This document shows positions 6,001 through 55,846 of a stretch of DNA of 64,000 nucleotides, one piece after another; position 1 is the first letter of the stretch, and each line of letters starts with the position of its first letter. Both the position numbers and the translations under genes were made by a program. The stretch is taken from contig DAOSLF010000003.1 in the NCBI GenBank assembly GCA_035368605.1, positions 889-64,888 on the forward strand. Reading direction: 5' to 3'. The notes below the pieces were generated by a model. It did not search any database. It was given only the letters and a program-made list of their open reading frames with translations, and had not been told where the DNA came from. This DNA is from Candidatus Omnitrophota bacterium. GTDB taxonomy: Bacteria; Omnitrophota; Omnitrophia; Omnitrophales; Aquincolibacteriaceae.

Positions 6001-8260
6001 CGTTCTGAAAAACAAGAAGCCCTCCCGCGAGATTGTTCCCGGAATCAAATTCCGGAAGGTAAAGCGTATAAACCGAAGGCTGTTCGACCGCCGTCAGCAT
6101 ATCCCCGGCATACTTCAGCACCATGCCGTTTTGCGTGGTTAAGGTTATCGGGTCCGTGCCCAAAACGGGCACTCCGGGCACTTCGGGAACTTCGGGGGCA
6201 TTTTTCCGGAGCATCACTTCATGAGCCAGATAGGTCGAACCGCTTCCCCGGCTGCCGCTGATCAAAAGCTCGTTGAGACCCGGCCGGAGTCTCCAGGTCT
6301 CATTATGAAGCTCTCCGTCCACCGTGTAAGTCAGCGTATAGAATTCCTGATCCGTCAAAGACGGAGACGTCACGACCACAACGGGCAACACCGGGGCCGT
6401 CGTGTAAAAAATACTGTCGGAAAAAACCGTTCTGTTACCGGCCCGGTCCTCGACCTCGCACAAAACCGTTTTTAATCCGTCTCCTCCTTCCCCGGGGATC
6501 TCAACAACCTTGTTCGCTCCGTAAGTCTCCCAATCCGTCCAGCTGGACCCGTCATCCAGTGAAAACCTGACGCTGGCAACCGGGGAAAGATCGTCCTGCG
6601 CCTCGATAAAAAGAGCCAGGGCCCTCGAATCCGTCTCGGCGTCCCCCCTGTTGATCCGTAAACTCCCCCACGGCGGCACCGTATCCAGAAAAATCGTCAC
6701 GGTCTTCGTCGAAGTGCGTCCGAAAATATCGGTCGCGGAAAGAACCACCGTGTTCTCACCTTCCTGCAGGGAATAGCTCCGGGTCCGATCCTTGCCGTCC
6801 ACGGTGTAACGAAGTTCGCAGGAGCTTTCCCGGGTGTAAACCGGCTGTTCGGGTATTTCGATCTCGGGCGGAGTCGTATCAAGGACCCGGCGGCCGTCAT
6901 TGTAAAATTCTTCGACGGAACCTTCTTCGTAAAGGACCTGATAACCGGTGACGGCTTGTCCGTCCGTGATATTCCGGATAATGCTTTTGGCGGGTATCGT
7001 GCTCGCGCGGTCGAGCGCGGCTGTCAGCGATTCGGGGAGAAATGCGCCGCGGCCATAAGACTCGGAGGTCGCCCGGATACTGTAATTCCCGGTCCCGGCG
7101 TTCACGAATACCGGATCGGCCTTCAGATTTCCGGCTGTCTGCGCCGCGGCCGCGGGAGGCGTAGCGCTGCCATAAGCGGTACTCCGTTCCGTATTCTTCC
7201 AAAAGGTATTGTTCTCCACCACGGCATATCCGCGGCCTGGCTGACCGGCGGAGTGGGCGGCCCAGGAGAACTCATAGATCGATGAAAATGTGCTTCCCGT
7301 GAAAATATTATTACAGATCCGGCTCTTCGCTCCGGAAAGGACGTTTATGGCGATATCGTTCGCCACGAAGGTGTTGTACCTGATCACGGTCGTGTCCTTC
7401 GGGAGCTGGACTCCGACATGCGTCATCGAAAAATAATTCATTTCGATCAGCGTATCGGAACCGTTCCGGACATGAATGCCGTAATCCTTGTTAGCCACGA
7501 TCCGGTTATGGCGGATCACAACCCTGTCTCCTTCAACGCGGATCGCAGCGGAAGGAGTCCCCGCGTAAGGGCCGATCCCCGAGATTGTCAGTCCTTCAAT
7601 CCGGTTATTCCCCATCGCGCGAATCCCCTGGATTCCCGTTTCATAATCACCGTGAAGGATCGTCGTATCTGCATTCTCCCCCTGCAAATTCACCCCGGCT
7701 TTCAGAATCAGCCCTTGGGGACACCCAAAGGCGTCGCGTTCGTAATGATAAGTGCCGGAATGGATGAAAAGGGTCGTCCCGGCTTCGGCGTTATCGATCG
7801 CGGACTGGATCGATTGTCCTTCATAGACATGACGGAACATTCTGCCATCCGGAAGTTTTTCCGTTACGATCCGTCCGGATTCATCATAAATATTCTGGTC
7901 CGTTCCCGGACTTTCGGAAAGCGGACCGGCGTTATTAGCGAGGAACTGCGTGGTGGCATCCGCAAGAACCGGTTCATCCGGTGCCGTTGATGAAACATTT
8001 GCCGCCGCGACAACCGGTCGGACCGCGGTGAGATCATAGTCCTGCGACGGAAGACCATCGCACCAGACCGTCTGGTGCCAAACAAGACAGAATACCAGGC
8101 AAAGCGCCACCACTCTGATGGACAGCCGATGCGAGCAGCGGCAGAAACGCTTCGCGAACGCAGGAAGTGGCAAGACTCCCGAAAGAGAAGCCTCCGCTTG
8201 AACCCGCGGCAAGATCATCACATCCCGATCACTTTGGCGTTCGTCGGATATTTTCTTCAT
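1..8260 (-). CDS. Giant secreted multidomain protein, N-terminal >2,750 aa only (C-terminus lies beyond nt 1): signal peptide, parallel beta-helix repeats, Ig-like modules, glucoamylase/GH144-like region, many YD/RHS-type repeats
   Basis: Absent from the ORF track because no stop codon falls inside the window. Hand translation of the minus strand from ATG 8260 (alt ATG 8218) gives MKKISDERQSDRDVMILPRVQAEASLSGVLPLPAFAKRFCRCSHRLSIRVVALCLVFCLVWHQTVWCDGLPSQ... The frame was spot-checked open at nt 7618, 6538, 5278, 4498, 3418, 2338, 1498 and 58. No minus ORF in this frame is listed over 8.2 kb; all listed ORFs here are short shadow ORFs. Motifs: NNRIEGLTISG, VIRHNRIVANKDYGIHV, VIRYNTFVANDIAINV (beta-helix); YRYDAAGRVVGV, YEFDSEGNEI, FYDADGKLI, YDDQGKPL (YD repeats); YFGVDQASFILSLL (GH144/PF10091-like). 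Confidence 0.85.
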   Translation of the reverse strand, partial: MKKISDERQSDRDVMILPRVQAEASLSGVLPLPAFAKRFCRCSHRLSIRVVALCLVFCLVWHQTVWCDGLPSQDYDLTAVRPVVAAANVSSTAPDEPVLADATTQFLANNAGPLSESPGTDQNIYDESGRIVTEKLPDGRMFRHVYEGQSIQSAIDNAEAGTTLFIHSGTYHYERDAFGCPQGLILKAGVNLQGENADTTILHGDYETGIQGIRAMGNNRIEGLTISGIGPYAGTPSAAIRVEGDRVVIRHNRIVANKDYGIHVRNGSDTLIEMNYFSMTHVGVQLPKDTTVIRYNTFVANDIAINVLSGAKSRICNNIFTGSTFSSIYEFSWAAHSAGQPGRGYAVVENNTFWKNTERSTAYGSATPPAAAAQTAGNLKADPVFVNAGTGNYSIRATSESYGRGAFLPESLTAALDRASTIPAKSIIRNITDGQAVTGYQVLYEEGSVEEFYNDGRRVLDTTPPEIEIPEQPVYTRESSCELRYTVDGKDRTRSYSLQEGENTVVLSATDIFGRTSTKTVTIFLDTVPPWGSLRINRGDAETDSRALALFIEAQDDLSPVASVRFSLDDGSSWTDWETYGANKVVEIPGEGGDGLKTVLCEVEDRAGNRTVFSDSIFYTTAPVLPVVVVTSPSLTDQEFYTLTYTVDGELHNETWRLRPGLNELLISGSRGSGSTYLAHEVMLRKNAPEVPEVPGVPVLGTDPITLTTQNGMVLKYAGDMLTAVEQPSVYTLYLPEFDSGNNLAGGLLVFQNGDRMLYQGGKPVCLEKPSGEKLIYHEDGTVAYVLGSDSKRTDFAYRSGDGGSVTGILSFEENLTARYDDQGKPLWIKRSDGTQVYYEDGFLKGYRNANGDFFRYETSISREGHDLTGYLSKIIAVRPAGFSTEIDPGLFLQNKDAFPEAWETLQNDLLERIEYDATGNIRQTVSGKGEILRLADGLPVALTGPDHRVVSIGNQISQNGDLLSISWDDGSGVVQIYNAEGALEGLRLSDGTLLRIDESSLDRIVLSDGTVLTELVWNGTSLTGFRRTSADGQVEIYRNSKVIERIGADGVRTIFIDYRNSREPESLITEDGMTYRVIRYPNGEGLTERLTELVKIDLPGGGRIEFEQGRPVRYVQSRQVRIEPYEVPELLPGKHFVSVIELPNASLRSLTVDENGYIFSGEILFRDGTQCLIENNEIVKQITASGRFLEFSDAIEFQEPGPASPPEALTAAEAAYRRYLVEKQLGFFSEGKGLHAGTGLPLDNYLLAEDQQSDYSQATLVGFWAEILAAIAAGDFETPLVSRKQAFEKLEALLAVYQEVQRQAGWNGMVAFFRIIENEQPVLDESGEPTGEVIKTYRYENLSDQYGFGDTLNLAVSLSSVLGAVKNLSLEPDMTVLRESIVARANAILTAQEAGYAAFYDSVKKRFRGAYGLNPQTGQWEFVNNYYIDRLFNEFRPGMVWLAANYPEYQPAFDGLDVTIRRYLTEEGRAIELAAPFDGGTFQMFWPLIHVDETRYPEFNVALRNFLYVQAEYAFGTGNPGLLSAGDNPGYGYEGKIGLPAAAEADDVRHSDIGSIYGTASAFGLAPHYTLQFLKNLETSFPEIVTEAGFVDALSIRTVLHTDPVTGEILPTEEPVFSSQYFGVDQASFILSLLTTSRGYLRSYLMDRGVAERFDNLYGSFLLNLNPATDSALPMPPFGENVEVLYDGGSVMPDGKMSGLVKQPSFIPNVFDSRFGEGRVFNYRQPDGTFHHSAIEFGEGGSFREMDIQEYLLLTGHTDLGRALMGGFELDVYNRADSQGAFYTPLHGYAASELIRDPLLGEVRQIAFQFLDAEHPVGLWNKYSAAPLDLDRFDFLSVPVRVGDGTPENIRLKFEFKGTGNIFLTEPLKQGWQFITIPVVRPLDGRAEMITTVIQSANGEPVAGEIYIGPLSGFKVRTTNRLDWAMMLGKSEQEIRTLIRNGIVTEAFGGGVRDAEEILENFTIDSSGKLVSGILRRADGSIQYFENGLLSKWVFRNGRTVLYEKGIASFIIDLARGKLETGRFYYDQDLRGTIHSFNIQDNDRRRIFNTDGTLRTMIQDGNTVQMEGGRIISITTPQAILTGIEFGDDGNLIRAHAVLNDGREMDIDEFAGNRVSVGEGIWLYYRGTEITAVETLRNGRTDLVYRYDAAGRVVGVDAEFTREGEPVSMPLFEYLMLPERAAERAQLISRTLNVIAIPGSIVGEFSYPDHPQGEMIYARRADIGYDSQAYFMFQYQSTSTSHVLGMVFNHQNSPFEISDYGFLSVTLMQDPSMTWNQDFTFKIKGTGYNTLYAFSMKNLVPEYRTFWFPMAGKAGLEGEITLELVKESDGVGKEGCVYFKDVSYMSLKTFEEPLWEEQAGIRASRIRNLKIEAENLSSVGATIAAGTPLTFPGLLPYLDIPTRMIHTDTTAGANRLVTFRRFDGTRVELNGSEVTRVTLPNGIVNEYEFSENSAEISIGGPDHTSPDGSPAVSYSYGALRRIIQPDGRQYDLSYEFDSEGNEITVFTDPVSGEVRRFRGGKLLTSADPNGIVTHYLYSDEEIIGAELTYRNRVLNSTRYSYEGEETRITDERGTVWFYDADGKLIKHLTRDGYLYEYSDYFQTLPDGAVPDPGDYKNAAYAETGLRAVSLKGYQAPDGSWIIFEGDQGSEVHLASGATAVNLVFDEDQRIKAGQIQFSNGLILEIEDYVPVRGRLAEGSLFEQSLPQGTSREIVQDEEGGFLGFQCKVGDYTMTYNAAGELVRAETGAGASH

Positions 8261-8856: not shown

Positions 8857-10272
8857 ATGAAAAAGACCATAGCGGTCCTTGCGATTCTCAGTATCACATT
8901 TTTGTCCCCCTTTTCCGCCTGGGCCGTCGGGTCAGGAGGCCTCGAGAACGCCTCCTTCAGCGCCCAACAGCTGAGCCTTGGCGGCGCCACGACAGCGACA
9001 CCGGATGAACCGGCCGCCATCTCCTACAATCCCGCCGGCATCGTGGACCTTCCCGGCGTCCAGGTCCAGGCCAGCCAGAACTTTATCAGCATGCTGACGT
9101 TCAAGGATAATGACGTCACAGGGGACACCCGGAGCTCGGGAACGCTCGCGTATGTCCCGACCGCGTATGTCACGATCAACCCGGGAAGGGTCTTCTGTGA
9201 CCGCCTGGCTTTCGGCATCGGAAGTGACTCCCCCTTCGGGCTCATGAACAAGTACAATTCCAGTGATCCGGCGACCCATTACACGGGCTGGCGGAACTAT
9301 CTCAAGATGTTCACGCTAAAACCGACCGTCGCCTACAAGTTCACGGACAAGCTCTCGATCGGCGGCGGCCCGATGTGGTACCGGATTTACGATTTCGGAG
9401 GCATCCAGGGTTATCCGAACAACCTCATCACGATCCCCTTCCTCGGAGTCAATACAGCTGACGGACAGATCAGGATCAACACGTCCGGCAACCATTGGGG
9501 ATGGCAGCTCGGCACACTCTATAAATTCAATGAAAAACACCGTGTCGGTTACTACTTCCGCAGTCCCGTGGTCGTGAACCTGAAAGGCCGGGTCAAGGTA
9601 GAAAACTCCAACATCTCACCACTTCTCGGCGGTCTCGGCCTCCGTAATTTTGAGACCGGTGTGCATACGAAGATGAGCCTTCCGATGAGCATGACTTGGG
9701 CCTACGCGTACCAGCCGACGAAGAAAACACACTACGAAGCCGATTTCATCTGGACCCGCTGGTCCACCATGAAACGCGTCTATTTCGTGAACGACACTTC
9801 CGGAAACGCGCTGGACGATGCGATCCTGAACGCGGTCCGCAGCGCCGACAAAGACTGGCGGGACGGCTTTGGATTACAGCTCGGGGCAAGCCACAAGCTC
9901 ACGGACAGGCTGACGCTCCGCGGCGGAAGCTGGTTCTACTGGACCCCGGTCCCGAAAACCCATTTCACACCAAGTATCCCCGATGCCAATCACCTGGTGC
10001 TTTCTCTCGGTCTCGGCTACAAGCTCAGCAAATATCTTGTCGCCGACCTCGCCTATTACAACTCGTTCTATTTCAAACGCCGGATCAATAATGACATCGC
10101 CGAGAATGCCGCGCTCCTCAACTCCTCCGTGGACGGGCATTACAAGACTTATTCGCAGGGCCTTACCGTCAGCATGACGCTCAAGTGGGATGATATCTTT
10201 CCCCGCGTGACGCGCGCGGGCGACGAGGAATCCATCGGTTCGTCCATGAGCATGAACCCGGCCGCCAGATAA
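8857..10272 (+). CDS. Outer-membrane transport protein, FadL/OMPP1/TodX family
   Basis: Internal ATG 8857 preceded by AGGAG (8844-8848). Signal peptide MKKTIAVLAILSITFLSPFSAWA. N-terminal GLENASFSAQQLSLGGATTATPDEPAAISYNPAG matches the FadL-family hatch motif. Barrel-like alternating sequence over about 470 aa. Confidence 0.75.
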   Translation: MKKTIAVLAILSITFLSPFSAWAVGSGGLENASFSAQQLSLGGATTATPDEPAAISYNPAGIVDLPGVQVQASQNFISMLTFKDNDVTGDTRSSGTLAYVPTAYVTINPGRVFCDRLAFGIGSDSPFGLMNKYNSSDPATHYTGWRNYLKMFTLKPTVAYKFTDKLSIGGGPMWYRIYDFGGIQGYPNNLITIPFLGVNTADGQIRINTSGNHWGWQLGTLYKFNEKHRVGYYFRSPVVVNLKGRVKVENSNISPLLGGLGLRNFETGVHTKMSLPMSMTWAYAYQPTKKTHYEADFIWTRWSTMKRVYFVNDTSGNALDDAILNAVRSADKDWRDGFGLQLGASHKLTDRLTLRGGSWFYWTPVPKTHFTPSIPDANHLVLSLGLGYKLSKYLVADLAYYNSFYFKRRINNDIAENAALLNSSVDGHYKTYSQGLTVSMTLKWDDIFPRVTRAGDEESIGSSMSMNPAAR

Positions 10273-21655: not shown

Positions 21656-24600
21656 CTAGAACTTCCCCGTCATCCGCACGAACGGACCGCTGTTATGATA
21701 ATTGTTCGCGTCCCGGAGGTCATCCGTAAAATCGGTAAAATTATAACCGATCCCGATCCGCACGTAATCATAGATTTCACGATCAACCTCGAAAAGCATC
21801 CCGTGCCGTATCGTATCGAGCGCGGAGGATTGCCACAAGAGCCGATATTCGGCCGCGATATCCCATTTCCGGGTCACATGGAAATTAATGCGGCTGACAG
21901 ACAAGAAATTACCGGTATCCGTCTCATCAAGCGTGTTACGGGCCAAAGTGAACAAGTCGCGATCCTGGGTGATCAGCGTTGCCCGTTTCCACGCCAGTTT
22001 CTGTGCGAGACCGAAGAACCGATTCACGTCATAGATCGCGTCCATTGAGATAACATGCGCGATCTCATGGAACATGTTTTCGTTGTAATAAGAATTCACG
22101 TACTGAAAATCATTTCCGATGTCTCTCAAATAGCTATACTTAAAGAGAAAATTCAGGTGGTCAAGACCAATAGGGCGATAGGCAAAAGCCACGGTAAAAT
22201 CCGCAAAATTCCCAAGATTTGTTTGCTTGCTTTCATCCACGAGATCGAAAAGATAGGTGGCGCCATAATCAAATTTGGTCAGAAAAGTCAGCTCGCGATG
22301 AATTTGATATTGAAATGAATTGCGCAAGACCAGCTGATTACCCTTGGGATACGCACCATTGCTTCTCAGTTCCGCATAAGTCCGCGCACGGAGTTTTCTG
22401 CCGTCCGCGTAGGCCAGATAGCCTCCATAAACGTTGGAGCTGTTATTCTGCGCCAGGCTATTTTCAACCAATGTCAGCAGATTCCGGGCCATCGAACTGT
22501 CCAAGTGCCGCCGCTCATACTTCGCGCCGTAATCCCAGTGGTCGTTCAGCGCGCCCTCATAGCCGAGAATATCCGCAAAACCATCCACGCCCTGGTAGGA
22601 GGAGTACTCGCGTTCCGAATAAATTCGCGATTTCTCGGTAAGCGAAAAAGAGCTCCCGATCGCGGTTGAGAGTGTCCTCGAACCAATGCCGCGGTCGATC
22701 GAGCGGAGGTTCGCATAGCTTCGCGCGCCGTTGCCGTGGTTCCTTTCGAAGCCGAAGTAGGTCGAATCCCCCAGCGGACCGAACATCTGCTCGATATAAC
22801 CGAAGACATCCTTGATCAGCTCGCAACGCACACCGCCGCCAAACTGGTAATTGTCCGCCGAGTGAAGAGTCGTTTGCGCTTTCACATACGGCAAGAGGCG
22901 GTCATTGATATGGTAGCCGATCTTGGTCGCGATGCCGTGCTCATAGGGGATTTCGGAATAAAGCGAGGGCGTCAGGTTGGCAGCGTCCTGGACTTGGTCG
23001 ATGTTGCTGCGCTGGTATTCGGCCTGGGCAAGGTATTTGCCGTTATCGTAGGCAAGCTGGGCCGTGTGGGTCTGCAGGTCTTCGTAAGGGGCCATGATAT
23101 TATGCTCGGCAAGAGGCATCAACTGGCCGATCACCTCGCTTGAATCGAAACGGTAGCGGGCCGAGAAATTATCGGTGAACTTGTAACGGCTCGCGAGACC
23201 GTATTTCTTGAAACCTTCCTGGCTCGTCATGTGGCCGTTCGAAAAACTCGGCTCCACGCCCTGGACGTAACCGCTCACTTCGAGGTTCCTCACGGGTTCC
23301 GACTGCGCGCGGATCAGGTAGGCGTCCTCGCGCGGCCGCGTGTTGTCCCCGCGCAGGTTCCCTTCCGTCCCGAAGCTGAGCCCTCCGTCGAAAGAGACCG
23401 AGGAATCCATCTGCTTGTTCGCGGTGGTCGCGTACTCCGCGGTGATCTTGGTGTTGCGGCCGAACTTCATCATCAGGTCAACGCCGCGCATGTCGTAATC
23501 GTTGCCGCCGGTCCGTTTTTCCTCGACCGCCGTTGCACCGAGCCTCACGTGATCGCCGGCCCACACGTAACCGCGCAGACCGCGGTTGCCGATCTCCGGA
23601 AGGTCCGACGAGGAAGGTTCATACTCGTAGTCCACGATCAGGTAAACGGGATTGCCGTCCATGATATCGGCCGAAACGAGCGAATCCGTCGCGGCGACGG
23701 ACGAGAGCGGGCGGGAAAGAAGGATGCGGCCTTCGGCGTAGCTGATCTCGTAATCCGTCCCTTCCGTCATGTCGTGGCTCGTCAGCACCATCCCCGTAAT
23801 CTTGTCGCGGATCTCGACGCGAATCTTTTCGCTACCTTCGATCAGGTTCCGGTTGCGCGTGTAGAAAAGGGAGCCGCCCGTCGCGTAGAACTCGTTATGG
23901 TCGGCCCGTTTGTCCGAATCAGCCCAGAAAAACCGGAGACCGCGCTTCGGGTCCCCGTAGACCGTGCTCGCGACCGAATCGAAACTCCCCTTGAGGCCGG
24001 AGAGCGTCCGGTTATAGGTGGCCAGTTCGGTATCCGTGAATTCCGTCTTGAAGCTCCCCCATTTCAGATAAGACTTGTCCATCTCGACCAGCACATAGAG
24101 CCGCTGGGCCGTGTCCTGCGCCTCGTAGTCGCGTGCCGAGTAGTCGCCGTAGACCGGATAGTATTCGTCAGGGTCGAGGTTCGTGAACAGCGCGGAACGG
24201 CGATCCGAGGTGTCGTAGTGAGCCTTGACGAGGAACTTCCCCTTGAGTTTCGATTTCAGGAAAAAGGCCGCGCGGCCGTCCTCGGTGAACCCGTCGCGGT
24301 AGGCGTCGGAATCCGCGGCTTCCATCGCCCCGTTCGCGAAATTGATGCCGAGCTGCTCCTCGCCAAGGGCGACCATGAAGAACGTGCTGTCCTTGACCTT
24401 GATCTTTTCCTGGTAGGTCGTGCTTTCCCCTTTCGGATCCGCGGCCATGATGTTGAACTCGTGCTCGCCGGGCTCGACGAAGAACTCCTTCTGGAACATG
24501 CCGGTCTCGGGGTCCACTGTCACGGGGAGGTCGTTGATCATGACCTGGTACTCGGGTCTTGTCTTGCCCTGGACCCGGACCGTCGGTTTCGCGATGAGGG

Positions 24601-26419
24601 GGATGCTGCGCTTGCCGTCCTTAAAGAGGTTGAAATCCCCGACCGCCGGAAGCTCGGGCTGGTAGTTCTTCTGGGCCCTGGGATCGAGCTTGTTGTAGAC
24701 CTCGAAGAACTTGAGGGTTGTCCAATCCTCGTGGTGCTTCGCATCGCGAACCTTGAGCTGGTACGAATAGACGCCGGGCTTGATCATGAAACCATTCTCG
24801 GCCTTCCCGTCCCACGTCACCTCCGCGGGCGGCGCACCGATGCCGTAACCGGTCCAGACGGGCACGCCCATTTCGTCGCGGACCTCGATGGCCCATTTCT
24901 TGACGAACCTGGCGTAATTGGTGTCGAGCCTGAAGAGCGCGTCCTTTTCGAGGACCCCGACGCCGAGCTTCAGGAGCTCCGGTTCCATCATAATGTCAAG
25001 GTCCGGCCGGGAGATATCAACCCCCTGCGTGACCATGACCATCAGGTCCTTGCGGAACGCCTCGGGAATGCCGGAGGGCGGGAGCAGGACGGCAAAACTC
25101 GCCTTGCCCATGAGACCGGGCGTGATCTTCACGAGATAGGTCTCTTCGGTGATGAATTTCGTTCCTTCGGGAAGCGTATGCCCGTCGATCTTGACGAGAT
25201 GGCGGCCCGGCGCGACGCCGGGGATGTGATAGCGGCCGTACTCATCGGTGACAACCTTGATGCCCTCTTCCGTATAAAGCGTCACCCACGGCACGCCCTC
25301 TTCACCGCATTGCTGGACGCCGTCCTGGTTAAGATCGTTAAAGACCTTGCCGATGATGGTCCCCTCCTCAAAGATCGGATCGCCCACGACCGTGAACTGC
25401 ACGTGCGCCGTTTCGGAAAGCGTGCCGCCGCTCCCCTCCACCGTAACCTCCAGCGAATATGTCTTCCCGAGCTGGACACCGCTCGTCACGAGCGTGGCAA
25501 ACGTCACGTCATACGAGGCGCCGGGTCCGATCGTCCCGAGCGGGATGAGCAGCGAGCCGTCCTGCCCGGCGACCGACTTCCCGTTCACGCGGATCGAATG
25601 CTCGGCGTAGTCGAACCCGTTCGGAATCTTGACCCGCATGTTCGAGTTCGTGAAGGTGTTGCCGGAACTATTCCGGAAATGCGCATTAATCCCGATCGCG
25701 TCTCCTTTCTTGATGTGACGCTTGGACGCCGCAACCGTAAGCTTTGCCGGATTCACTTCCGCGTTCAGATCGTCATACAGAATATTTCCATATCGGGGAA
25801 CTGCACCGGCGCTGACACCGTTGGCATCCAAAACAAAAACAACTTTGGCCGCATTTTCAGGAACGATCGCAGTTATCGAAAAGAGCGTCCAGACGCCCAC
25901 CGGAGCGGTGGCAGCAGTGATTTTTCCCGTTTCAACGGGAGTTCCGATTTTCACCCCGGAGGCGTCCTCGAACTCGATCTTCATTCTCCCCCCCGTGTCC
26001 GCTGCCATGATGTCCGATTGGGCATAGCCCGAGAAAGTAATGTAATCTCCCGGCTTCACGTTGCTGTAGGTCTGGAACGTGAAGGTGCTTTCATAAAAAG
26101 CCGGCGCGTCAAAATAGGCCTGCAAATAAAGCGCGTAGGAGCCGTTCCTCGGGGCGAGAAAACCGGGCGGCAACCCGGCGGGATTAACCACTCCATCCCA
26201 GCGCCCCATTTTGGCGGTCGTGTTCAAAGGCCTGGTGTTATCTGCCCAGTTATTCTGCGTCCCGTCCCCAAGCGGCTGTTCAAAACTCGGGTTGCCGAGC
26301 ACGTTGGCGAAGGCGGAAGGCGTAAAAGCGAAAAACAGCCACAAACCACAAAACCATACGGCAATACGAAGCCGGGGCGCTTTCTTGGCGGGCATGTGGT
26401 GTGTGGCGCGTGACATCAT
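21656..26419 (-). CDS. Very large multidomain outer-membrane protein (1,587 aa): CBM-like N-terminus, DUF11-like repeat, SdrD-B/Cna-B-like and FlgD-Ig-like modules, about 900-aa C-terminal beta-barrel-like region
   Basis: Signal peptide ...WFCGLWLFFAFTPSAFA. NVLGNPSFEQPLG (CBM4/9-like). LTVAASKRHIKKGDAIGINAHFRNSSGNTFTN...IPNGFDY (DUF11-like). GTIIGKVFNDLNQDGVQQCGEEGVPWVTLYTEEGIKVVTDEYGRYHIPG (SdrD-B-like). VTWDGKAENGFMIKPGVYSYQLKVRD (FlgD-Ig-like). Aromatic-rich alternating C-terminal part ending ...VRMTGKF (terminal Phe, OMP hallmark). Confidence 0.8.
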   Translation of the reverse strand: MMSRATHHMPAKKAPRLRIAVWFCGLWLFFAFTPSAFANVLGNPSFEQPLGDGTQNNWADNTRPLNTTAKMGRWDGVVNPAGLPPGFLAPRNGSYALYLQAYFDAPAFYESTFTFQTYSNVKPGDYITFSGYAQSDIMAADTGGRMKIEFEDASGVKIGTPVETGKITAATAPVGVWTLFSITAIVPENAAKVVFVLDANGVSAGAVPRYGNILYDDLNAEVNPAKLTVAASKRHIKKGDAIGINAHFRNSSGNTFTNSNMRVKIPNGFDYAEHSIRVNGKSVAGQDGSLLIPLGTIGPGASYDVTFATLVTSGVQLGKTYSLEVTVEGSGGTLSETAHVQFTVVGDPIFEEGTIIGKVFNDLNQDGVQQCGEEGVPWVTLYTEEGIKVVTDEYGRYHIPGVAPGRHLVKIDGHTLPEGTKFITEETYLVKITPGLMGKASFAVLLPPSGIPEAFRKDLMVMVTQGVDISRPDLDIMMEPELLKLGVGVLEKDALFRLDTNYARFVKKWAIEVRDEMGVPVWTGYGIGAPPAEVTWDGKAENGFMIKPGVYSYQLKVRDAKHHEDWTTLKFFEVYNKLDPRAQKNYQPELPAVGDFNLFKDGKRSIPLIAKPTVRVQGKTRPEYQVMINDLPVTVDPETGMFQKEFFVEPGEHEFNIMAADPKGESTTYQEKIKVKDSTFFMVALGEEQLGINFANGAMEAADSDAYRDGFTEDGRAAFFLKSKLKGKFLVKAHYDTSDRRSALFTNLDPDEYYPVYGDYSARDYEAQDTAQRLYVLVEMDKSYLKWGSFKTEFTDTELATYNRTLSGLKGSFDSVASTVYGDPKRGLRFFWADSDKRADHNEFYATGGSLFYTRNRNLIEGSEKIRVEIRDKITGMVLTSHDMTEGTDYEISYAEGRILLSRPLSSVAATDSLVSADIMDGNPVYLIVDYEYEPSSSDLPEIGNRGLRGYVWAGDHVRLGATAVEEKRTGGNDYDMRGVDLMMKFGRNTKITAEYATTANKQMDSSVSFDGGLSFGTEGNLRGDNTRPREDAYLIRAQSEPVRNLEVSGYVQGVEPSFSNGHMTSQEGFKKYGLASRYKFTDNFSARYRFDSSEVIGQLMPLAEHNIMAPYEDLQTHTAQLAYDNGKYLAQAEYQRSNIDQVQDAANLTPSLYSEIPYEHGIATKIGYHINDRLLPYVKAQTTLHSADNYQFGGGVRCELIKDVFGYIEQMFGPLGDSTYFGFERNHGNGARSYANLRSIDRGIGSRTLSTAIGSSFSLTEKSRIYSEREYSSYQGVDGFADILGYEGALNDHWDYGAKYERRHLDSSMARNLLTLVENSLAQNNSSNVYGGYLAYADGRKLRARTYAELRSNGAYPKGNQLVLRNSFQYQIHRELTFLTKFDYGATYLFDLVDESKQTNLGNFADFTVAFAYRPIGLDHLNFLFKYSYLRDIGNDFQYVNSYYNENMFHEIAHVISMDAIYDVNRFFGLAQKLAWKRATLITQDRDLFTLARNTLDETDTGNFLSVSRINFHVTRKWDIAAEYRLLWQSSALDTIRHGMLFEVDREIYDYVRIGIGYNFTDFTDDLRDANNYHNSGPFVRMTGKF

Positions 26420-50022: not shown

Positions 50023-50454
50023 TCAGGAAACCTCGATTTGAATCGGCTTTTGAGCCTTGTGGTTATAGTCAGGACCGGCGAACACGCGAAGACGTTTGGC
50101 CATCACATCCCCGTTCCGGGTCTTGGGAAGCATGCGGGTCACGGCCTTCGTGATAACATCGGCCGGCTTTTTCTCCATGAGCTCTTCGAGCGTCACTGAG
50201 TGAAAGCCGCCGGAATACCCGGACCAGCGGGTGTAGACCTTCTGTTCTTTTTTTTTGCCGGTCACGCGGATTTTCGCGGCATTGATCACGATGACCTGAT
50301 CGCCCGTAATCTGATCTTTCGCAAAGCAAGCCTTGCCTTTCCCGATCAGAAGGGACGCTGCCTTCGTGGCCAGACGCCCGAGGGTCTTCCCCGATGCGTC
50401 GATGAGATAAACCTTGCGGTTGATGTCCTTTTCCTTAGGAATAAACGTTTTCAT
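50023..50454 (-). CDS. rplM: 50S ribosomal protein L13
   Basis: KVYLIDASGKTLGRLATKAASLL..., full-length L13. Confidence 0.97.
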   Translation of the reverse strand: MKTFIPKEKDINRKVYLIDASGKTLGRLATKAASLLIGKGKACFAKDQITGDQVIVINAAKIRVTGKKKEQKVYTRWSGYSGGFHSVTLEELMEKKPADVITKAVTRMLPKTRNGDVMAKRLRVFAGPDYNHKAQKPIQIEVS

Positions 50455-50774: not shown

Positions 50775-53700
50775 TTACTGTTTAAAGGAAGCCCACTTCC
50801 TCGTGACCGGATCATAGCTTTTCAGCACGGATCTCCTTCCGGACTTAACCGTATAGATCTCTTTCAGGCCGGTAGCCGTCATGACGTAATAGAGCCCCGA
50901 GCGGTATCCCCTCCGGTCCTGCGAGCTCGGCTTCTCGGAAACCGCGCCCGTCGTAAGGTTCATGACCCGGACCTTGTTTCCTGAGATCGTCTGATACGCC
51001 AACGTCGCAAGCGACGGAACGGCGGTCCATCCCGCAGGGATGGGCCGCGGCACGATCTTGAGCGTGTTCATGTCGACCCAGGTCTGCGAGCCGTTCGTTT
51101 TGGTGATCACTGCGTTCATTCCTTCAAAAACAACCGACTTTGCCGCTCCGGAGACCCTCAGCTTTTGGGTCGCGTCCGCGATCTTTTGCACATAGATACT
51201 TCTCGGAGCAATGCCGTAGACCACGGTTGCGCCGTCAGGAGAAACGTCATAGACGCTGCTGACCGGAACCGTCGAATACCGCCCCCCTTTATAAACCTTG
51301 AATAGTACCTTCGACTCTCCTGTCTTCAGATCCAGCAGGATCAGCTTGCTATATCTATTCACGGTCTCGATCTTGAACGCGTAGTTCACGTTCGATGCCG
51401 CCCGAGTCCAGCCGGCGGGCAAAGGAGGATCCATCAACTGCAGCGTGTCGAGATCCACATACTTTGTTTCCACCGCTCCGCCCGAATGCGTGACCGTGCA
51501 GACCGCGACACTTCCCCGGTACTCCACAGCGGTTACGGCTCCCGAAAGCGTCATTTGCGCGGCAGTTCCCAGATTGATGATGAAGGTCTTGCTGTAATCC
51601 GCATCCCCGTTGCCGGTCGCGGAAACACCGACCGTCAGAACGGTCTTCCCGGAGGGCGTCCGGTACACATCGATCGTTCGATACGAACCCGACCCCGAAC
51701 TCCCGCCCGCCGCCTGGCTCGCCGGATAAAAAATCTTGACCGGCGTCAGAACCAGGTGCTCCGTCCCGGCGGAAGCATCATAGACAAACACTTCGTAGGT
51801 GTTGCTGTAGGTGATCTTCGTCGGAACAATGAGATACCCCTCATCCAGCACCGCATCCGCCTGCTCGAGAAGCGTGTGGTGAGACAAAGTGCTTGCGAGG
51901 GTCGTTTGATCCACCACATAAACATCCCCGATCCGGGTGCCGTTCCGGTAAGCCGTAGCCATTACCACCGAAACATTCCCGTCAGAGAGAAAACCGACGC
52001 TCTGGGGAATACCCGTGATGTCCGCATGTTTCGTGGCATCACCAACCTGCTGAACACGCAGCCAGCCCGTTGCCGGGGTGGCGTAATCGTTCCGCACGCC
52101 GAAATAAACCAGCTCGCCGCTCGGGGAAATGTCCATCGAGGTATAACTGTTCGGCGGCGATTGGAGAGAATAGAGTTCCCGGATCTCGCCGGTCCCGAGG
52201 TCCTGGATTTTTAATCTCGTGTAGTTGCCATGATTGTCCGGATTGATCCAATCCTCGGTCATAAACGCATAATTCGCATTACCCGCCGCCCGAGTCCAGC
52301 CGGCGGGCAAAGGAGGATCCATCAACTGCAGCGTGTCGAGATCCACATACTTTGTTTCCACCGCTCCGCCCGAATGCGTGACCGTGCAGACCGCGACACT
52401 TCCCCGGTACTCCACAGCGGTTACGGCTCCCGAAAGCGTCATTTGCGCGGCAGTTCCCAGATTGATGATGAAGGTCTTGCTGTAATCCGCATCCCCGTTG
52501 CCGGTCGCGGAAACACCGACCGTCAGAACGGTCTTCCCGGAGGGCGTCCGGTACACATCGATCGTTCGATACGAACCCGACCCCGAACTCCCGCCCGCCG
52601 CCTGGCTCGCCGGATAAAAAATCTTGACCGGCGTCAGAACCAGGTGCTCCGTCCCGGCGGAAGCATCATAGACAAACACTTCGTAGGTGTTGCTGTAGGT
52701 GATCTTCGTCGGAACAATGAGATACCCCTCATCCAGCACCGCATCCGCCTGCTCGAGAAGCGTGTGGTGAGACAAAGTGCTTGCGAGGGTCGTTTGATCC
52801 ACCACATAAACATCCCCGATCCGGGTGCCGTTCCGGTAAGCCGTAGCCATTACCACCGAAACATTCCCGTCAGAGAGAAAACCGACGCTCTGGGGAATAC
52901 CCGTGATGTCCGCATGTTTCGTGGCATCACCAACCTGCTGAACACGCAGCCAGCCCGTTGCCGGGGTGGCGTAATCGTTCCGCACGCCGAAATAAACCAG
53001 CTCGCCGCTCGGGGAAATGTCCATCGAGGTATAACTGTTCGGCGGCGATTGGAGAGAATAGAGTTCCCGGATCTCGCCGGTCCCGAGGTCCTGGATTTTT
53101 AATCTCGTGTAGTTGTTACGATTGTCCGGATTGATCCAATCCTCGGTCGCAAAAGCATAATTCGCATTACTCGCCGCTCGAGTCCAGCCCTGGGGGATTG
53201 CCGGGACATGATAAAGGTCCATCGTCCCCTGGAGGCCTATCCCCTCAATGATGACATAGATCGTTCGCACTTTCGAAAGATCGACCTGCTGGAACAGTGT
53301 CGCGGGAATCCGGTAAATGTTTTCCTCGCCGGATTCGATACCCGTCAAATGGACAAAAGCCTTCTGGTCATTTGCGTCCACAAATTCCAGTTTGATGGTT
53401 CCGGCGGTTCCCTTGAGCCCGAAAACAAACTCACTGAAACCGCTGAGGTCGTTCGTTTCAATCTCCGGAGTTCCGTAATGGTCGAACGTCAATCCCCCGC
53501 CAGCCCAACCGAATATGCCTGTGTTGTAGGTGAAAGAGCCCCCTCGGCCGTGCGCCGTCGCGGCGGCATTCGCATCCCCTCCATAAATCACCGTGATCAC
53601 CGGATTCCCGGGCAGGGGCGTCAGATTCTCGGAGGTCAGGAAAGTATCCGGGAGGATTTTCGGCTTGTAAGGATGTTCTCCCAACCGCACCTGGAGTTCC

Positions 53701-54917
53701 CCTGTCGGCTGCGAGACGCCATGGCTCTCCACGACCACGTTGATGTTCGTGATCCGGTGGAGGTCGAGCCCGGGATTGTTCGCGAGAAGTTCGCTCATCG
53801 GTATCGCGTAAAACTGCTCCGATGTTCCGACATCCGCCAGATGGACGACCCCCTTGTTCCGGGCCGCATCCTCAAATTCCACCTTGATCCGCCCGCTACC
53901 GCTCGACAGCCTGAGGCCCAGCACAAGGTTCGCCATTCCGGTCAAATCCCTGGACTCCACCGCCGGCGTCCTGTAATCATCGAATGACGTCACCCCCGCC
54001 GCCCAGCCGGCGCTCGGCGGCAGAGCGTAAGAGAGCGTGTAAAGCGATGAACTCTGCTGCGAAACCTCTCCAAAGGCGCCTTCGGGGCCCGCGACATCGA
54101 TCAGATGATGGATTCCGGAAAAAGTGCTCACGTCTGCCGGTGTCAGGGCCGGATTGGAAACGACCACCGGCGTATACGCCAAGCCCGCGGTCTCGATCTC
54201 GACCGTGCCGCTGGATCCCGCGTTCGCCTTATCCGCAACAAAAACGATCTCGCGAATCCGGGTCGCATCAAGCTGCGGGGAAAGCGTCTGGAGCGTGGTG
54301 GAAGAAATAACGTAATTTTTGAAATCGCTGGTGAGGGTGAGCGGAACAGTGGCCACATGATTCGAGACATCTTTGATCTCCAGCTTGAGCGTGGCGTCCG
54401 GGGTCCCTTTAGCCGCGACCGTCAGCCCGGAGGCTGAAAGATTCATCGGAGCCGACCCGGAGAGATAAACGAACGCGAAATCATCGCTGTCCAGGTTGCT
54501 GTATTGCATCTGGATGTTTCGGGAAGAGGTCTGATGGACCTGAAGAGTCCCGCTCACCACAGTTTCCCCGCTGCCGACGCCGGATCCGATCACCGGTCTG
54601 TCAGGCAACACGGTAATCCGGGAAGGATCATAGGCGGCCGTTGTGAAATTCTGCGTATCGCTTGCTGCCGACAAGGGGCTAACGCTTTGAGTAACAGAAC
54701 CGGAAGGAACGGCTTTCGTATCAGAAACCGTTTTTGAATTCGCCTCCGCAAGGGTCCTCGTCCGGATATGGTCGCGCCCGGTCAAATACCCATGGGCCGC
54801 GAAGGAAGTGGGCACAGGAATCCCGTTAAAAATAAAAAGGACGGTTACGAGATACGCAACCGTCCTTTGCATAAGTCCGTTTTTGACACCTCTAATTTCA
54901 TTTTTCTGTGCGTCCAT
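50775..54917 (-). CDS. Large modular surface/secreted protein (1,380 aa): three CBM-like modules of about 150 aa, then tandem PD40/beta-propeller-like modules of about 296 aa
   Basis: ATG 54917 with AAGGGGGTG SD. N-terminal hydrophobic segment VAYLVTVLFIFNGIPVPTSFAA. Repeated pattern D(L/F)(T/S)G..(L/F)V(F/L)GL...G.IK(L/V)EF.DA appears three times. DISPSGELVYFG and DVSPDGATVVYG are TolB-like PD40 motifs. Confidence 0.8.
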   Translation of the reverse strand: MDAQKNEIRGVKNGLMQRTVAYLVTVLFIFNGIPVPTSFAAHGYLTGRDHIRTRTLAEANSKTVSDTKAVPSGSVTQSVSPLSAASDTQNFTTAAYDPSRITVLPDRPVIGSGVGSGETVVSGTLQVHQTSSRNIQMQYSNLDSDDFAFVYLSGSAPMNLSASGLTVAAKGTPDATLKLEIKDVSNHVATVPLTLTSDFKNYVISSTTLQTLSPQLDATRIREIVFVADKANAGSSGTVEIETAGLAYTPVVVSNPALTPADVSTFSGIHHLIDVAGPEGAFGEVSQQSSSLYTLSYALPPSAGWAAGVTSFDDYRTPAVESRDLTGMANLVLGLRLSSGSGRIKVEFEDAARNKGVVHLADVGTSEQFYAIPMSELLANNPGLDLHRITNINVVVESHGVSQPTGELQVRLGEHPYKPKILPDTFLTSENLTPLPGNPVITVIYGGDANAAATAHGRGGSFTYNTGIFGWAGGGLTFDHYGTPEIETNDLSGFSEFVFGLKGTAGTIKLEFVDANDQKAFVHLTGIESGEENIYRIPATLFQQVDLSKVRTIYVIIEGIGLQGTMDLYHVPAIPQGWTRAASNANYAFATEDWINPDNRNNYTRLKIQDLGTGEIRELYSLQSPPNSYTSMDISPSGELVYFGVRNDYATPATGWLRVQQVGDATKHADITGIPQSVGFLSDGNVSVVMATAYRNGTRIGDVYVVDQTTLASTLSHHTLLEQADAVLDEGYLIVPTKITYSNTYEVFVYDASAGTEHLVLTPVKIFYPASQAAGGSSGSGSYRTIDVYRTPSGKTVLTVGVSATGNGDADYSKTFIINLGTAAQMTLSGAVTAVEYRGSVAVCTVTHSGGAVETKYVDLDTLQLMDPPLPAGWTRAAGNANYAFMTEDWINPDNHGNYTRLKIQDLGTGEIRELYSLQSPPNSYTSMDISPSGELVYFGVRNDYATPATGWLRVQQVGDATKHADITGIPQSVGFLSDGNVSVVMATAYRNGTRIGDVYVVDQTTLASTLSHHTLLEQADAVLDEGYLIVPTKITYSNTYEVFVYDASAGTEHLVLTPVKIFYPASQAAGGSSGSGSYRTIDVYRTPSGKTVLTVGVSATGNGDADYSKTFIINLGTAAQMTLSGAVTAVEYRGSVAVCTVTHSGGAVETKYVDLDTLQLMDPPLPAGWTRAASNVNYAFKIETVNRYSKLILLDLKTGESKVLFKVYKGGRYSTVPVSSVYDVSPDGATVVYGIAPRSIYVQKIADATQKLRVSGAAKSVVFEGMNAVITKTNGSQTWVDMNTLKIVPRPIPAGWTAVPSLATLAYQTISGNKVRVMNLTTGAVSEKPSSQDRRGYRSGLYYVMTATGLKEIYTVKSGRRSVLKSYDPVTRKWASFKQ
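51397..53172 (-). repeat. In-frame tandem direct duplication, 2 x 888 bp (296 aa)
   Basis: 51397-52227 is identical by eye to 52285-53115 (831 nt). The remaining 57 nt of each unit are about 85-90 percent identical. A diverged third module follows at about 50900-51396. Confidence 0.9.
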
Positions 54918-55087: not shown

Positions 55088-55846
55088 CTAGTAGAAAACC
55101 TTTATCAGGGTGAGCCCGCAGGAGGGTATTGTTTGCCCGGAAAAACAGCGGGATTTCGCCTTTAGCATGGAAGGGATATCGGAGGGTTGACGTTTCCCCC
55201 TCCCTACTTCGAGAAGGGTCCCCATAATGTTGCGGACCATGTGATAGAGAAAGCCGTCGCCTTCAAAGCGGAAGACCAGAAGACCATTCTCCTTTTTGAT
55301 CCGGATGGGCCTGAGCGTCCTGGTAAAGCTGACTTTCCTGGAACTTCTGCCTTTAAGAACGGCCGCCTCTGAAGTGAAGGACCGGAAGTCGTGACGACCG
55401 GACAGATGTCTCGCGGCTTTACGCATCGCGGCAAGGTCCAAGCGGAACGGAACGTGGTAGGCTCGGCCGGCAAGGAGGGGCGCGCGAAAAGGGCTGTTCC
55501 AGACGCGATATTCATAAACTTTGGACCGGGCACTGTAGCGCGCGTGAAAATCCGCTGGAACTTCCACGGCTGACTTTACAACGATGGCGGACGGGAGATA
55601 GGCATTCACGCCCCTCTGGATATGCGAAAGCTCGCGTCCGCTGCCGGTCCTGAAATTGACGACCTGCCCTTCCGCGTGAACGCCGGTATCCGTGCGACCG
55701 CTCGCGGCGGAGATCTTCACCGGATGGTCGAAAAACGCGGAAAGGGCCTTTTCGAGGGCTTCCTGGACCGTCGGCTTGCCGGGCTGGCGCTGAAATCCGA
55801 AAAACGCGGCGCCGTCGTATTCCAATACCAGTTTGATGTTTCTCAT
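55088..55846 (-). CDS. truA: tRNA pseudouridine(38-40) synthase
   Basis: LVLEYDGAAFFGFQRQ, catalytic ASGRTDTGVHA. Confidence 0.92.
   Translation of the reverse strand: MRNIKLVLEYDGAAFFGFQRQPGKPTVQEALEKALSAFFDHPVKISAASGRTDTGVHAEGQVVNFRTGSGRELSHIQRGVNAYLPSAIVVKSAVEVPADFHARYSARSKVYEYRVWNSPFRAPLLAGRAYHVPFRLDLAAMRKAARHLSGRHDFRSFTSEAAVLKGRSSRKVSFTRTLRPIRIKKENGLLVFRFEGDGFLYHMVRNIMGTLLEVGRGKRQPSDIPSMLKAKSRCFSGQTIPSCGLTLIKVFY

Follow-up and report, generated by a model that had tools for sequence, protein, structure and literature searches.

The 64,000 nucleotide (nt) stretch of Candidatus Omnitrophota bacterium DNA analyzed here (contig DAOSLF010000003.1, positions 889–64,888; referred to as the window) carries a gene for a modular protein of 1380 amino acids (aa). 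The gene is on the minus strand at window positions 50775–54917, as read from the list of open reading frames (ORFs) and the translation, and its stop codon is at 50775–50777. Nucleotide positions 51397–52227 are identical to positions 52285–53115 over 831 nt, with no mismatches, in a self-comparison of the 64-kb window at an offset of 888 nt. This confirms the perfect in-frame tandem duplication described in a first-pass annotation, which had been made from the sequence alone. The 888 nt spacing was also returned by a general repeat search of the window. Tandem Repeats Finder reported no repeat, because its maximum period of 500 nt is shorter than 888 nt. The repeat is in frame (888 = 3 × 296) within the only long ORF, i.e. 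50775–54917 of the minus strand, and the exact copies represent approximately 40% of the coding sequence (CDS), 2 × 831 of 4143 nt.

Read in the direction of the gene, the parts follow each other as U–Jup(57)–R(831)–J(57)–R(831)–Jdn; R denotes the exact core and Jdn the beginning of the module that comes next. Jup (53116–53172, minus strand) is the first 57 nt of unit 1 and the array-edge version of this segment; it encodes aa 583–601, SNANYAFATEDWINPDNRN, and is exact in nine of nine assemblies examined. It is followed by R copy 1 (52285–53115, minus strand, approximately aa 602–878). The internal junction J (52228–52284, minus strand) is the first 57 nt of unit 2, encodes aa 879–897, GNANYAFMTEDWINPDNHG, and is diagnostic of at least two units. 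R copy 2 is at 51397–52227 on the same strand (approximately aa 898–1174).

According to the first-pass annotation only the junction parts differ between the two units. The differences are confined to these parts, however the parts are not unrelated, as 52228–52284 and 53116–53172 differ at just 7 of 57 positions. The seven nt changes between Jup and J result in S583G, A590M, R600H and N601G, plus one synonymous change. Past the 831-nt run there are further exact stretches at the 888 nt offset, i.e. 52232–52260 with 53120–53148 and 52267–52282 with 53155–53170. Identity along the 888-bp unit is non-random: there are 0 differences in 831 positions of the core and 7 in 57 positions of the junction (Fisher p = 3e-9). 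By inspection, J agrees with Jdn, the start of module 3, at only two of the seven diagnostic positions, and an origin of J as a hybrid of its two flanks is thereby ruled out.

Two plus-strand ORFs, 51486–52214 (242 aa) and 52230–53102 (290 aa), are antisense to the gene and are duplicated along with the repeat. These are treated as shadows of the minus-strand gene.

One-unit and two-unit forms

Ten contigs of this species were retrieved for comparison. In the nine assemblies examined, J is exact in three and absent from six one-unit contigs. The three are the window, contig L002 (SPAdes NODE_1080, ERZ2648042) and contig L007 (GCA_035411025.1). J is base-for-base identical in these and in all three is flanked by the end of R at the left and the start of R at the right. 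The other six (L001, L003, L004, L005, L006 and L008) have a single, uninterrupted unit without J and encode a protein of 1084 aa. Exact-pattern scans of metagenome and genome contig collections for J, Jup and a 40-mer of R gave no match and no extra assemblies.

A cluster of proteins at 90% identity has 15 sequences, including the exact window protein, and these fall into two length classes, 1380/1365 aa and 1084/1069 aa, the gap between them being one unit, exactly 296 aa. Three more members of the cluster are one-unit forms. One-unit forms are found in at least six datasets from several projects. The cluster members carrying a name are "Candidatus Omnitrophota bacterium" proteins from metagenome-assembled genomes (MAGs), e.g. 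HOE68342.1 and HQB94408/9.

The flanks of the repeat are highly similar in all of these contigs. L001 and L008 show 0 mismatches with the window over 11.7 kb upstream of the repeat, and only 8 mismatches over 11.5 kb downstream, which lie together in a stretch containing the J/Jup differences. The flanks of the other contigs are 99.5–99.98% identical to the window. For the six one-unit contigs the flank identity is 99.8–100%. On flank identity, the one- and two-unit contigs belong to one species-level population. Single nucleotide polymorphisms (SNPs) in the flanks place the window (two units) with L001 and L008 (one unit each), and L007 (two units) with L003 and L006 (one unit each); L002 (two units) is between these groups. 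The forms are therefore interspersed, and together with the constant J sequence this means that two units are ancestral and one unit arose at least twice, or that some assemblies have collapsed. The one-unit sequence is the exact product expected from recombination between the cores, i.e. it lacks J and one R.

The assemblies show direct signs of the repeat, as was anticipated when the site was first described as one of likely assembly trouble. In the L007 scaffold, which contains 100 Ns, the left piece stops exactly 55 nt into R; the right piece opens with exactly the last 55 nt of R, after which come J–R–Jdn. Contig L010 (JGI 3300036966) begins exactly 127 nt before the boundary of R and module 3 (Jdn). 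The numbers 55 and 127 are standard SPAdes k values, and breaks exactly k nt from a repeat edge are the expected product of a true graph branch. In addition, only approximately 11–17 nt are common to the R end and the region upstream of Jup, and with so short a shared stretch a false join is not credible. Because J is unique, is the same in three assemblies and is accompanied by k-exact breaks, real molecules carry R–J–R, i.e. at least two units, and this is concluded with high confidence.

The two R copies of L002 are identical to each other, and both have three SNPs relative to the window copies, at R positions 202, 229 and 334. The intact R copy of L007 has two of these three SNPs. At least five different R haplotypes are present among the assemblies.

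The SNPs between assemblies are unevenly placed. Of the collapsed, one-unit gene of 3255 nt, R positions 194–488 hold eight sites and the remaining 2424 nt hold one. The dense stretch, of approximately 300 nt, corresponds to window positions 51740–52034 and 52628–52922 (aa 666–764 and 962–1060). Four of the eight sites are nonsynonymous: T666A, H668Q, N685D and V764I. Possible sources of this concentration are diversifying selection on the blades of the encoded structure (see below), conversion between strains, or paralogous variants that were picked differently by the assemblers.

Two further contig features are recorded here. Contig L011 (JGI 3300036959) begins 23 nt before the boundary of R and module 3, and within its positions 1–23 it has A instead of G at R position 826. 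This makes the GWTRAA-coding stretch identical to that upstream of unit 1, and the change may reflect true variation, a footprint of recombination or an error at the contig end. L002 has a cluster of single-base deletions in the truA region (approximately positions 9100–9200) relative to all other strains, and the truA gene called there is cut to 210 aa. These deletions are probably sequencing or assembly errors at a coverage of 2.4 and not biology.

Protein architecture, module family and locus

The AlphaFold2 (AF2) model of the 296-aa unit is one confident domain, with a predicted local distance difference test score (pLDDT) of 95.1 and a predicted template modelling score (pTM) of 0.87. DSSP assigns approximately 24 strands in fours, i.e. 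in four-stranded antiparallel groups, and the top structural neighbors of the unit are all propellers. The unit is thus modelled as approximately six PD40-like four-stranded blades. The PD40 profile (Pfam PF07676) gave no match to the window protein at E ≤ 1, and a homologue, P0023, matches it marginally (E 2.5e-4, 21.3 bits with a cutoff of 20.9). Resemblance to PD40/TolB propellers is seen in two other respects. The module center, L.v.DL.TG...YDVSPDG..VVY, fits PD40 blades, and the profile of the family described below matches many PD40-repeat proteins and TolB (long-unit profile, E 3e-4). The early assignment of the unit as PD40/propeller-like is therefore upheld by family profile, predicted blades and structural neighbors, with a direct Pfam match absent.

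Downstream of the two units is a short "GWT" module at aa 1167–1293 (51039–51419, minus strand), delimited by motif parsing and a hidden Markov model (HMM) match. It has approximately three blades and is a canonical module of the family, in which lengths of 125–147 aa are found. By tblastn it is 36% identical to the first approximately 110 aa of the 296-aa unit. A diverged third module had been reported to follow the two copies. Related sequence is present there, however it is this 127-aa short three-blade module and not a 296-aa unit. The protein ends with an 87-aa module (50778–51038, minus strand) that starts with PAGWTAVPS and is kept at the C-terminus of P0004 and P0023. The modules in the C-terminal half begin with PxGWT(R)AASNxNYAF. 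The 296-aa unit is a canonical module (approximately 140 aa) with an extension of approximately 155 aa that carries the motif VxVYDASxG.

Among 1.84 billion representatives, a profile of 11 GWT modules matched 3530 proteins with an E cutoff of 1e-3 and 406 with a cutoff of 1e-10. This exhaustive search was used in place of a simpler homologue search with the module alignment, which gave one match. For structure prediction alignment A3 was used, as A2 (the unit and modules 3–4 with short modules) stretched the short modules over a 290-aa gap. Approximately 80 of the top 150 profile matches have full modules, at 1–5 per protein; the remainder of these 150 match only profile positions of approximately 22–73, many times over, and are PD40-repeat proteins. 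All family members carrying a name are Omnitrophota/Omnitrophica MAG proteins.

The 296-aa unit is found as a single copy in other proteins, P0025 (56% identity), P0065 (53%) and P0024 (48%). Internal repeats in other relatives are 60–93% identical, with the exception of P0023. This protein, encoded on an NCBI contig of 19,573 nt, has an independent duplication at aa 236–815 with a period of 293 aa and two short modules per period. Its residues 274–522 are the same as residues 567–815, i.e. 249 identical residues, and divergence is found only in the first approximately 38 residues of the period. P0023 thus repeats at the protein level the pattern of the window, an identical core with a diverged 5′ edge.

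Pfam and NCBIfam scans of the 1380-aa protein gave no meaningful match, the only ones being spurious (TOBE_2, HEPN_DZIP3 and VirK). The N-terminal leader, aa 1–41 (54795–54917, minus strand), was read from the translation. It has a basic n-region and a hydrophobic core, TVAYLVTVLFIFNGIPVP, followed by SFA/A, and its end reads …TVAYLVTVLFIFNGIPVPTSFA/A (the slash marks the leader end). The leader motif FFIFSGIPVPTSFA is kept in nine distinct family proteins, and a TVTLEQAN-like stretch after the leader is also kept in nine otherwise diverged family proteins. The leader looks like a Sec signal peptide, by which the protein would be secreted, and a surface location is probable.

The leader ...FFIFSGIPVPTSFA followed by ...PVTLNE.Q..V.TVTLEQAN is common to proteins that are otherwise only 30–40% identical, i.e. 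the window protein and P0002, P0003, P0022, P0028, P0029, P0030, P0033, P0077 and P0109. Rather than being a generic Sec signal, a leader conserved to this degree may direct sorting or anchoring in a way specific to the lineage.

Three CBM11-like β-sandwich domains lie between the leader and unit 1, all encoded on the minus strand: copy 1 at aa 117–244 (54186–54569), copy 2 at aa 273–413 (53679–54101) and copy 3 at aa 441–571 (53205–53597). Copy 3 was identified by AF2 model and Foldseek, and copies 1 and 2 by an iterated HMM built from domain 3 (E 1.7e-26 and 2.1e-35, respectively). The AF2 model of aa 430–575 has a pLDDT of 92.5 and a pTM of 0.86. The top Foldseek neighbor of domain 3 is CBM11 (1v0a/6r3m; template modelling (TM) score 0.64, E 1e-6), followed by CBM30, agarase CBMs and CIA30/NDUFAF1. 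The three domains thus appear to have the same fold as CBM11 (1v0a) and the β-sandwich CBMs and CIA30 (TM 0.64, Foldseek probability 1.0). Their sequence identity to CBM11 is just 11–16%. At the sequence level there was no Pfam match, and the sole match of the profile among PDB sequences, to a GH89-associated module, was weak (E 0.009).

The gene is flanked by truA (55088–55846) and rplM (50023–50454), both assigned by Pfam. In the window truA, asd, leuB, glgA, recJ and secDF are on one side, and rplM, an AsmA-like protein gene and argC are on the other. In the syntenic locus of L001, rpsI, rnc and arginine-biosynthesis genes are called. Farther off in the window are uvrA, ftsH, a fadL-type porin gene and arginine/polyamine genes. 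The neighbors are housekeeping genes, and beside the gene there is no recombinase, reverse transcriptase or mobile element. A diversity-generating or invertible element was considered and dropped, as there is no adjacent reverse transcriptase or recombinase and the neighbors are of housekeeping type.

Proteins P0002 (1600 aa) and P0003 (1964 aa) are encoded in the same slot, glgA-leuB-asd-truA-[X]-rplM-rpsI-asmA-rnc. Their module sets are five short modules, or three modules with four immunoglobulin-like repeats. Because orthologues in the same slot differ in length and module sets, the truA–rplM slot holds a fast-remodelling modular protein.

Several other ORFs were noted in these loci. The slot occupant is 1380, 1600 or 1964 aa long, with the P0002 gene at positions 6001–10803 of contig L009 and the P0003 gene on an ERZ1426829 contig. 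L009 has an extra ORF of 497 aa, with no Pfam match, between truA and the P0002 gene. The ERZ1426829 contig has a 131-aa gene with 23S_rRNA_IVP/bAvd Pfam matches between leuB and asd, two genes upstream of the P0003 gene, and this has no equivalent in the approximately 200-nt leuB–asd spacer of the window. The window also has a second large ORF (21656–26419, minus strand) of 1587 aa. The sole Pfam match of this ORF is an SdrD B-like domain, which scores 29.7 bits where the cutoff is 29.7. The 1587-aa ORF is unrelated in sequence to the 1380-aa protein and its product may be another surface protein.

Origin and maintenance of the duplication

The reading favored here, which we hold with moderate confidence, is that the gene encodes a secreted, probably cell-surface protein of glycan-binding type, that its duplication is genuine and older than the sampled strains, and that recombination homogenizes the cores and adds or removes units. 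The order of parts in such a protein would be a signal peptide, three CBM11-like domains, two 296-aa units, the short three-blade module and a C-terminal remnant. The 831-bp perfect direct repeats would offer a substrate for RecA-type unequal recombination, gene conversion or replication slippage, by which the cores would be kept alike and whole units gained or lost. Loss of J and one R through recombination between the cores would give rise to the 1084-aa one-unit allele. Each change in copy number would alter protein length or valency by one folded module of approximately 32 kDa, the principle of the "Periscope proteins" discussed below. The duplication, the adjacency of J to R in real data, the existence of one- and two-unit contigs, the folds and the synteny are directly supported; we infer the surface location, the recombination mechanism, the biological nature of the one-unit contigs and the functional effect. 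Taken at face value, the pattern is one of concerted evolution, with cores homogenized within genomes and the edge (Jup and J) left diverged.

Several points weigh against this reading. All the assemblies appear to be of the short-read de Bruijn type; apart from the window, L001 and L008, this is read from MEGAHIT- or SPAdes-style contig names or from break signatures of k-mer length. In a de Bruijn graph R is one edge walked twice, and the identity of the cores within an assembly is confounded because the copies are identical by construction. The cores are thus not to be taken as "nucleotide-perfect" at face value, and small real differences between them were possibly lost to bubble popping. 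For the same reason, i.e. that both copies are one graph edge, gene conversion and unequal recombination are inseparable in these data. The true copy number in "two-unit" genomes could be greater than two, since an assembly loop is traversed the minimal number of times. L001 and L008 may be from the same or sister samples as the window and processed by another pipeline, in which case the difference in unit number between them and the window may be purely technical. With respect to surface display, no LPXTG, autotransporter, type IX secretion system or other anchor was found in the Pfam/NCBIfam scan of the 1380-aa protein. The protein also has only one or two copies of the unit, unlike the classical Periscope members, which have long arrays.

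The alternative that survives best is that there is no biological variation in copy number, i.e. two (or N) units are present in every genome, and short-read collapse accounts for the 1084-aa forms. This is unlikely, though its chance of being correct is appreciable. At 831 nt the repeat exceeds every k-mer length and probably the insert size as well, tandem repeats are a recognized cause of assembly collapse, and the assemblies visibly struggle at the repeat, with the k-exact breaks in L007 and L010. The flanks of L001 and L008, which have one unit, are 100.000% identical to those of the two-unit window in the comparison that bears on collapse, as if the same population or reads had been assembled differently. 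However three of the one-unit contigs (L003, L005 and L006) have MEGAHIT-style k141 names. MEGAHIT leaves repeats unresolved, and a graph in which J has approximately half the depth of R would be expected to branch, giving broken contigs like those of L007 and L010. A contig that runs through would thus imply that J is absent or is at less than approximately 20% of local depth in that sample. The recurrence of one-unit forms across datasets and projects also argues against collapse. Biological copy-number variation is judged the likelier case, although unproven. When repeat number was compared in related MAG strains, as the first-pass annotation had suggested, one- and two-unit contigs were both found. 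Its proposal of copy-number variation thus stands as far as one and two units occur between near-identical assemblies; it does not stand as an established biological variation, since short-read collapse could also yield this result.

A second alternative accepts that the copies are real but holds that they are modestly diverged, with their differences erased by bubble popping and no ongoing homogenization. Core identity forced by the structure of the graph favors this, and some of the SNPs concentrated in R 194–488 could be paralogous variants chosen differently in each assembly. On the other hand, the R haplotypes number at least five, which is more than two copies can supply, the same R variants occur in one-unit contigs, and dense core differences would have broken the assemblies. 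We regard hidden divergence of this kind as improbable, with a modest chance of being the case.

The duplication appears to predate the sampled strains and not to be a simple very recent event, because J is common to strains that differ by SNPs in the core and flanks. A fresh 888-bp duplication should leave either 888 bases without a mismatch or a junction in which both flanks are combined. A simple recent duplication is disfavored, since J carries seven private substitutions, with four amino acid changes. The "very recent duplication" considered in the first-pass annotation is thus not borne out, as J is private and is the same in three assemblies with differing cores. The specific form of this idea is a one-step duplication by unequal crossover at the GWTRAAS-coding microhomology, with no time for the copies to diverge. 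The 831 identical bases fit it, and by inspection a 17-nt near-identical stretch, GGCTGGACTCGRGCGGC, is present at the unit start and the module-3 start and is a possible mediator. Such a crossover predicts, however, that J equals Jup or is a Jdn/Jup hybrid, and what is seen is seven private differences clustered in 57 nt (with the p value given above) that extend to the 3′ end of J. Mutagenic repair synthesis at the junction would rescue the clustering only, and not the age, as J is older than the strains that share it. This makes a one-step recent origin very improbable.

That the two-unit form is an assembly expansion artefact, i.e. a loop present in no molecule or a threaded strain variant or paralogue, is barely credible: expansion is a generic risk at repeats and the coverage of L002 is very low (cov 2.38), but J is a distinct sequence that must exist in the reads, the R–J–R adjacency is found in three independent assemblies, the 11–17 nt common to the R end and the region upstream of Jup are too few for a false join at k ≥ 21, and in L007 and L010 the breaks at the R edges are k-exact and reveal a true branch. 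A paralogue as source was separately rejected, as there is no other copy of the unit within the window.

Relation to known systems and significance

The surface proteins known as Periscope Proteins, e.g. SasG/Aap, Rib/alpha C, Sgo_0707 SHIRT, Esp and CdrA, contain folded domains in tandem that are encoded by long DNA repeats of high identity (Whelan et al. 2021; PMC8201768). Their repeat number shifts between close strains, with intragenic homologous recombination as the proposed mechanism, and the change in length alters the projection of an N-terminal binding domain (PMC8201768). The Omnitrophota protein is similar in having identical domain-coding repeats, a putative secretion signal and binding-type domains N-terminal to the repeats. 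Provisionally, as it is seen in short-read assemblies, a repeat number that differs between close strains may also be shared. Unlike the Periscope members, its unit is 296 aa with approximately six β-blades, where theirs is an Ig-like, G5-E, Rib or SHIRT domain of 70–130 aa, and no C-terminal wall anchor was found in it. The host also differs, being an uncultured Omnitrophota bacterium, and the copy-number data are from short-read metagenomes whereas long-read genomes define the class. By analogy, the protein is best described as a Periscope-like variable-length protein in which the fold and the phylum would be new for the class and the mechanism would not.

Concerted evolution of tandem arrays proceeds by unequal crossover or gene conversion, and edge segments are not homogenized by out-of-register exchange. 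The present gene resembles such arrays in that the cores are the same within a genome and differ between strains, and in the diverged edge seen in both the window and P0023. It is unlike them in having two copies only, and its within-genome identity is confounded by the assembly method.

According to a 2026 preprint that surveys complete Omnitrophota genomes, the long genes seldom contain strict identical nucleotide tandems, and these always amount to less than 10% of a CDS. The approximately 40% of the CDS in exact copies found here is thus unusual for the phylum, in a comparison that is loose since the preprint covers only "long proteins".

With respect to assemblies and databases, the k-exact contig breaks together with a private junction are a means to tell a true duplication from an assembler artefact, and the gene is a documented case of one protein being on record at two lengths in MAG and protein databases. 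The work also defines an unannotated domain family of approximately 400 proteins at E ≤ 1e-10 that is without a Pfam model. As a positionally conserved and rapidly remodelled locus, the truA–rplM slot is a possible strain marker.

A more far-reaching proposal is that the slot encodes a fast-switching attachment protein, in which six-blade, non-closed propeller-like units of a hitherto undescribed domain family, the GWT modules, are gained and lost at high frequency in populations. This is speculative and we consider it doubtful. If true, the protein would act as a contingency-type switch of length or valency by which ultra-small, host-dependent bacteria adjust their contact with hosts or particles, and the P0023 duplication and the SNP hot spot in the unit would reflect a family-wide, selected mechanism.

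The favored reading has a wider consequence of its own. If the one-unit and two-unit alleles are biological, the Periscope principle would extend to an uncultured, largely host-dependent phylum, with a larger unit and a different fold.

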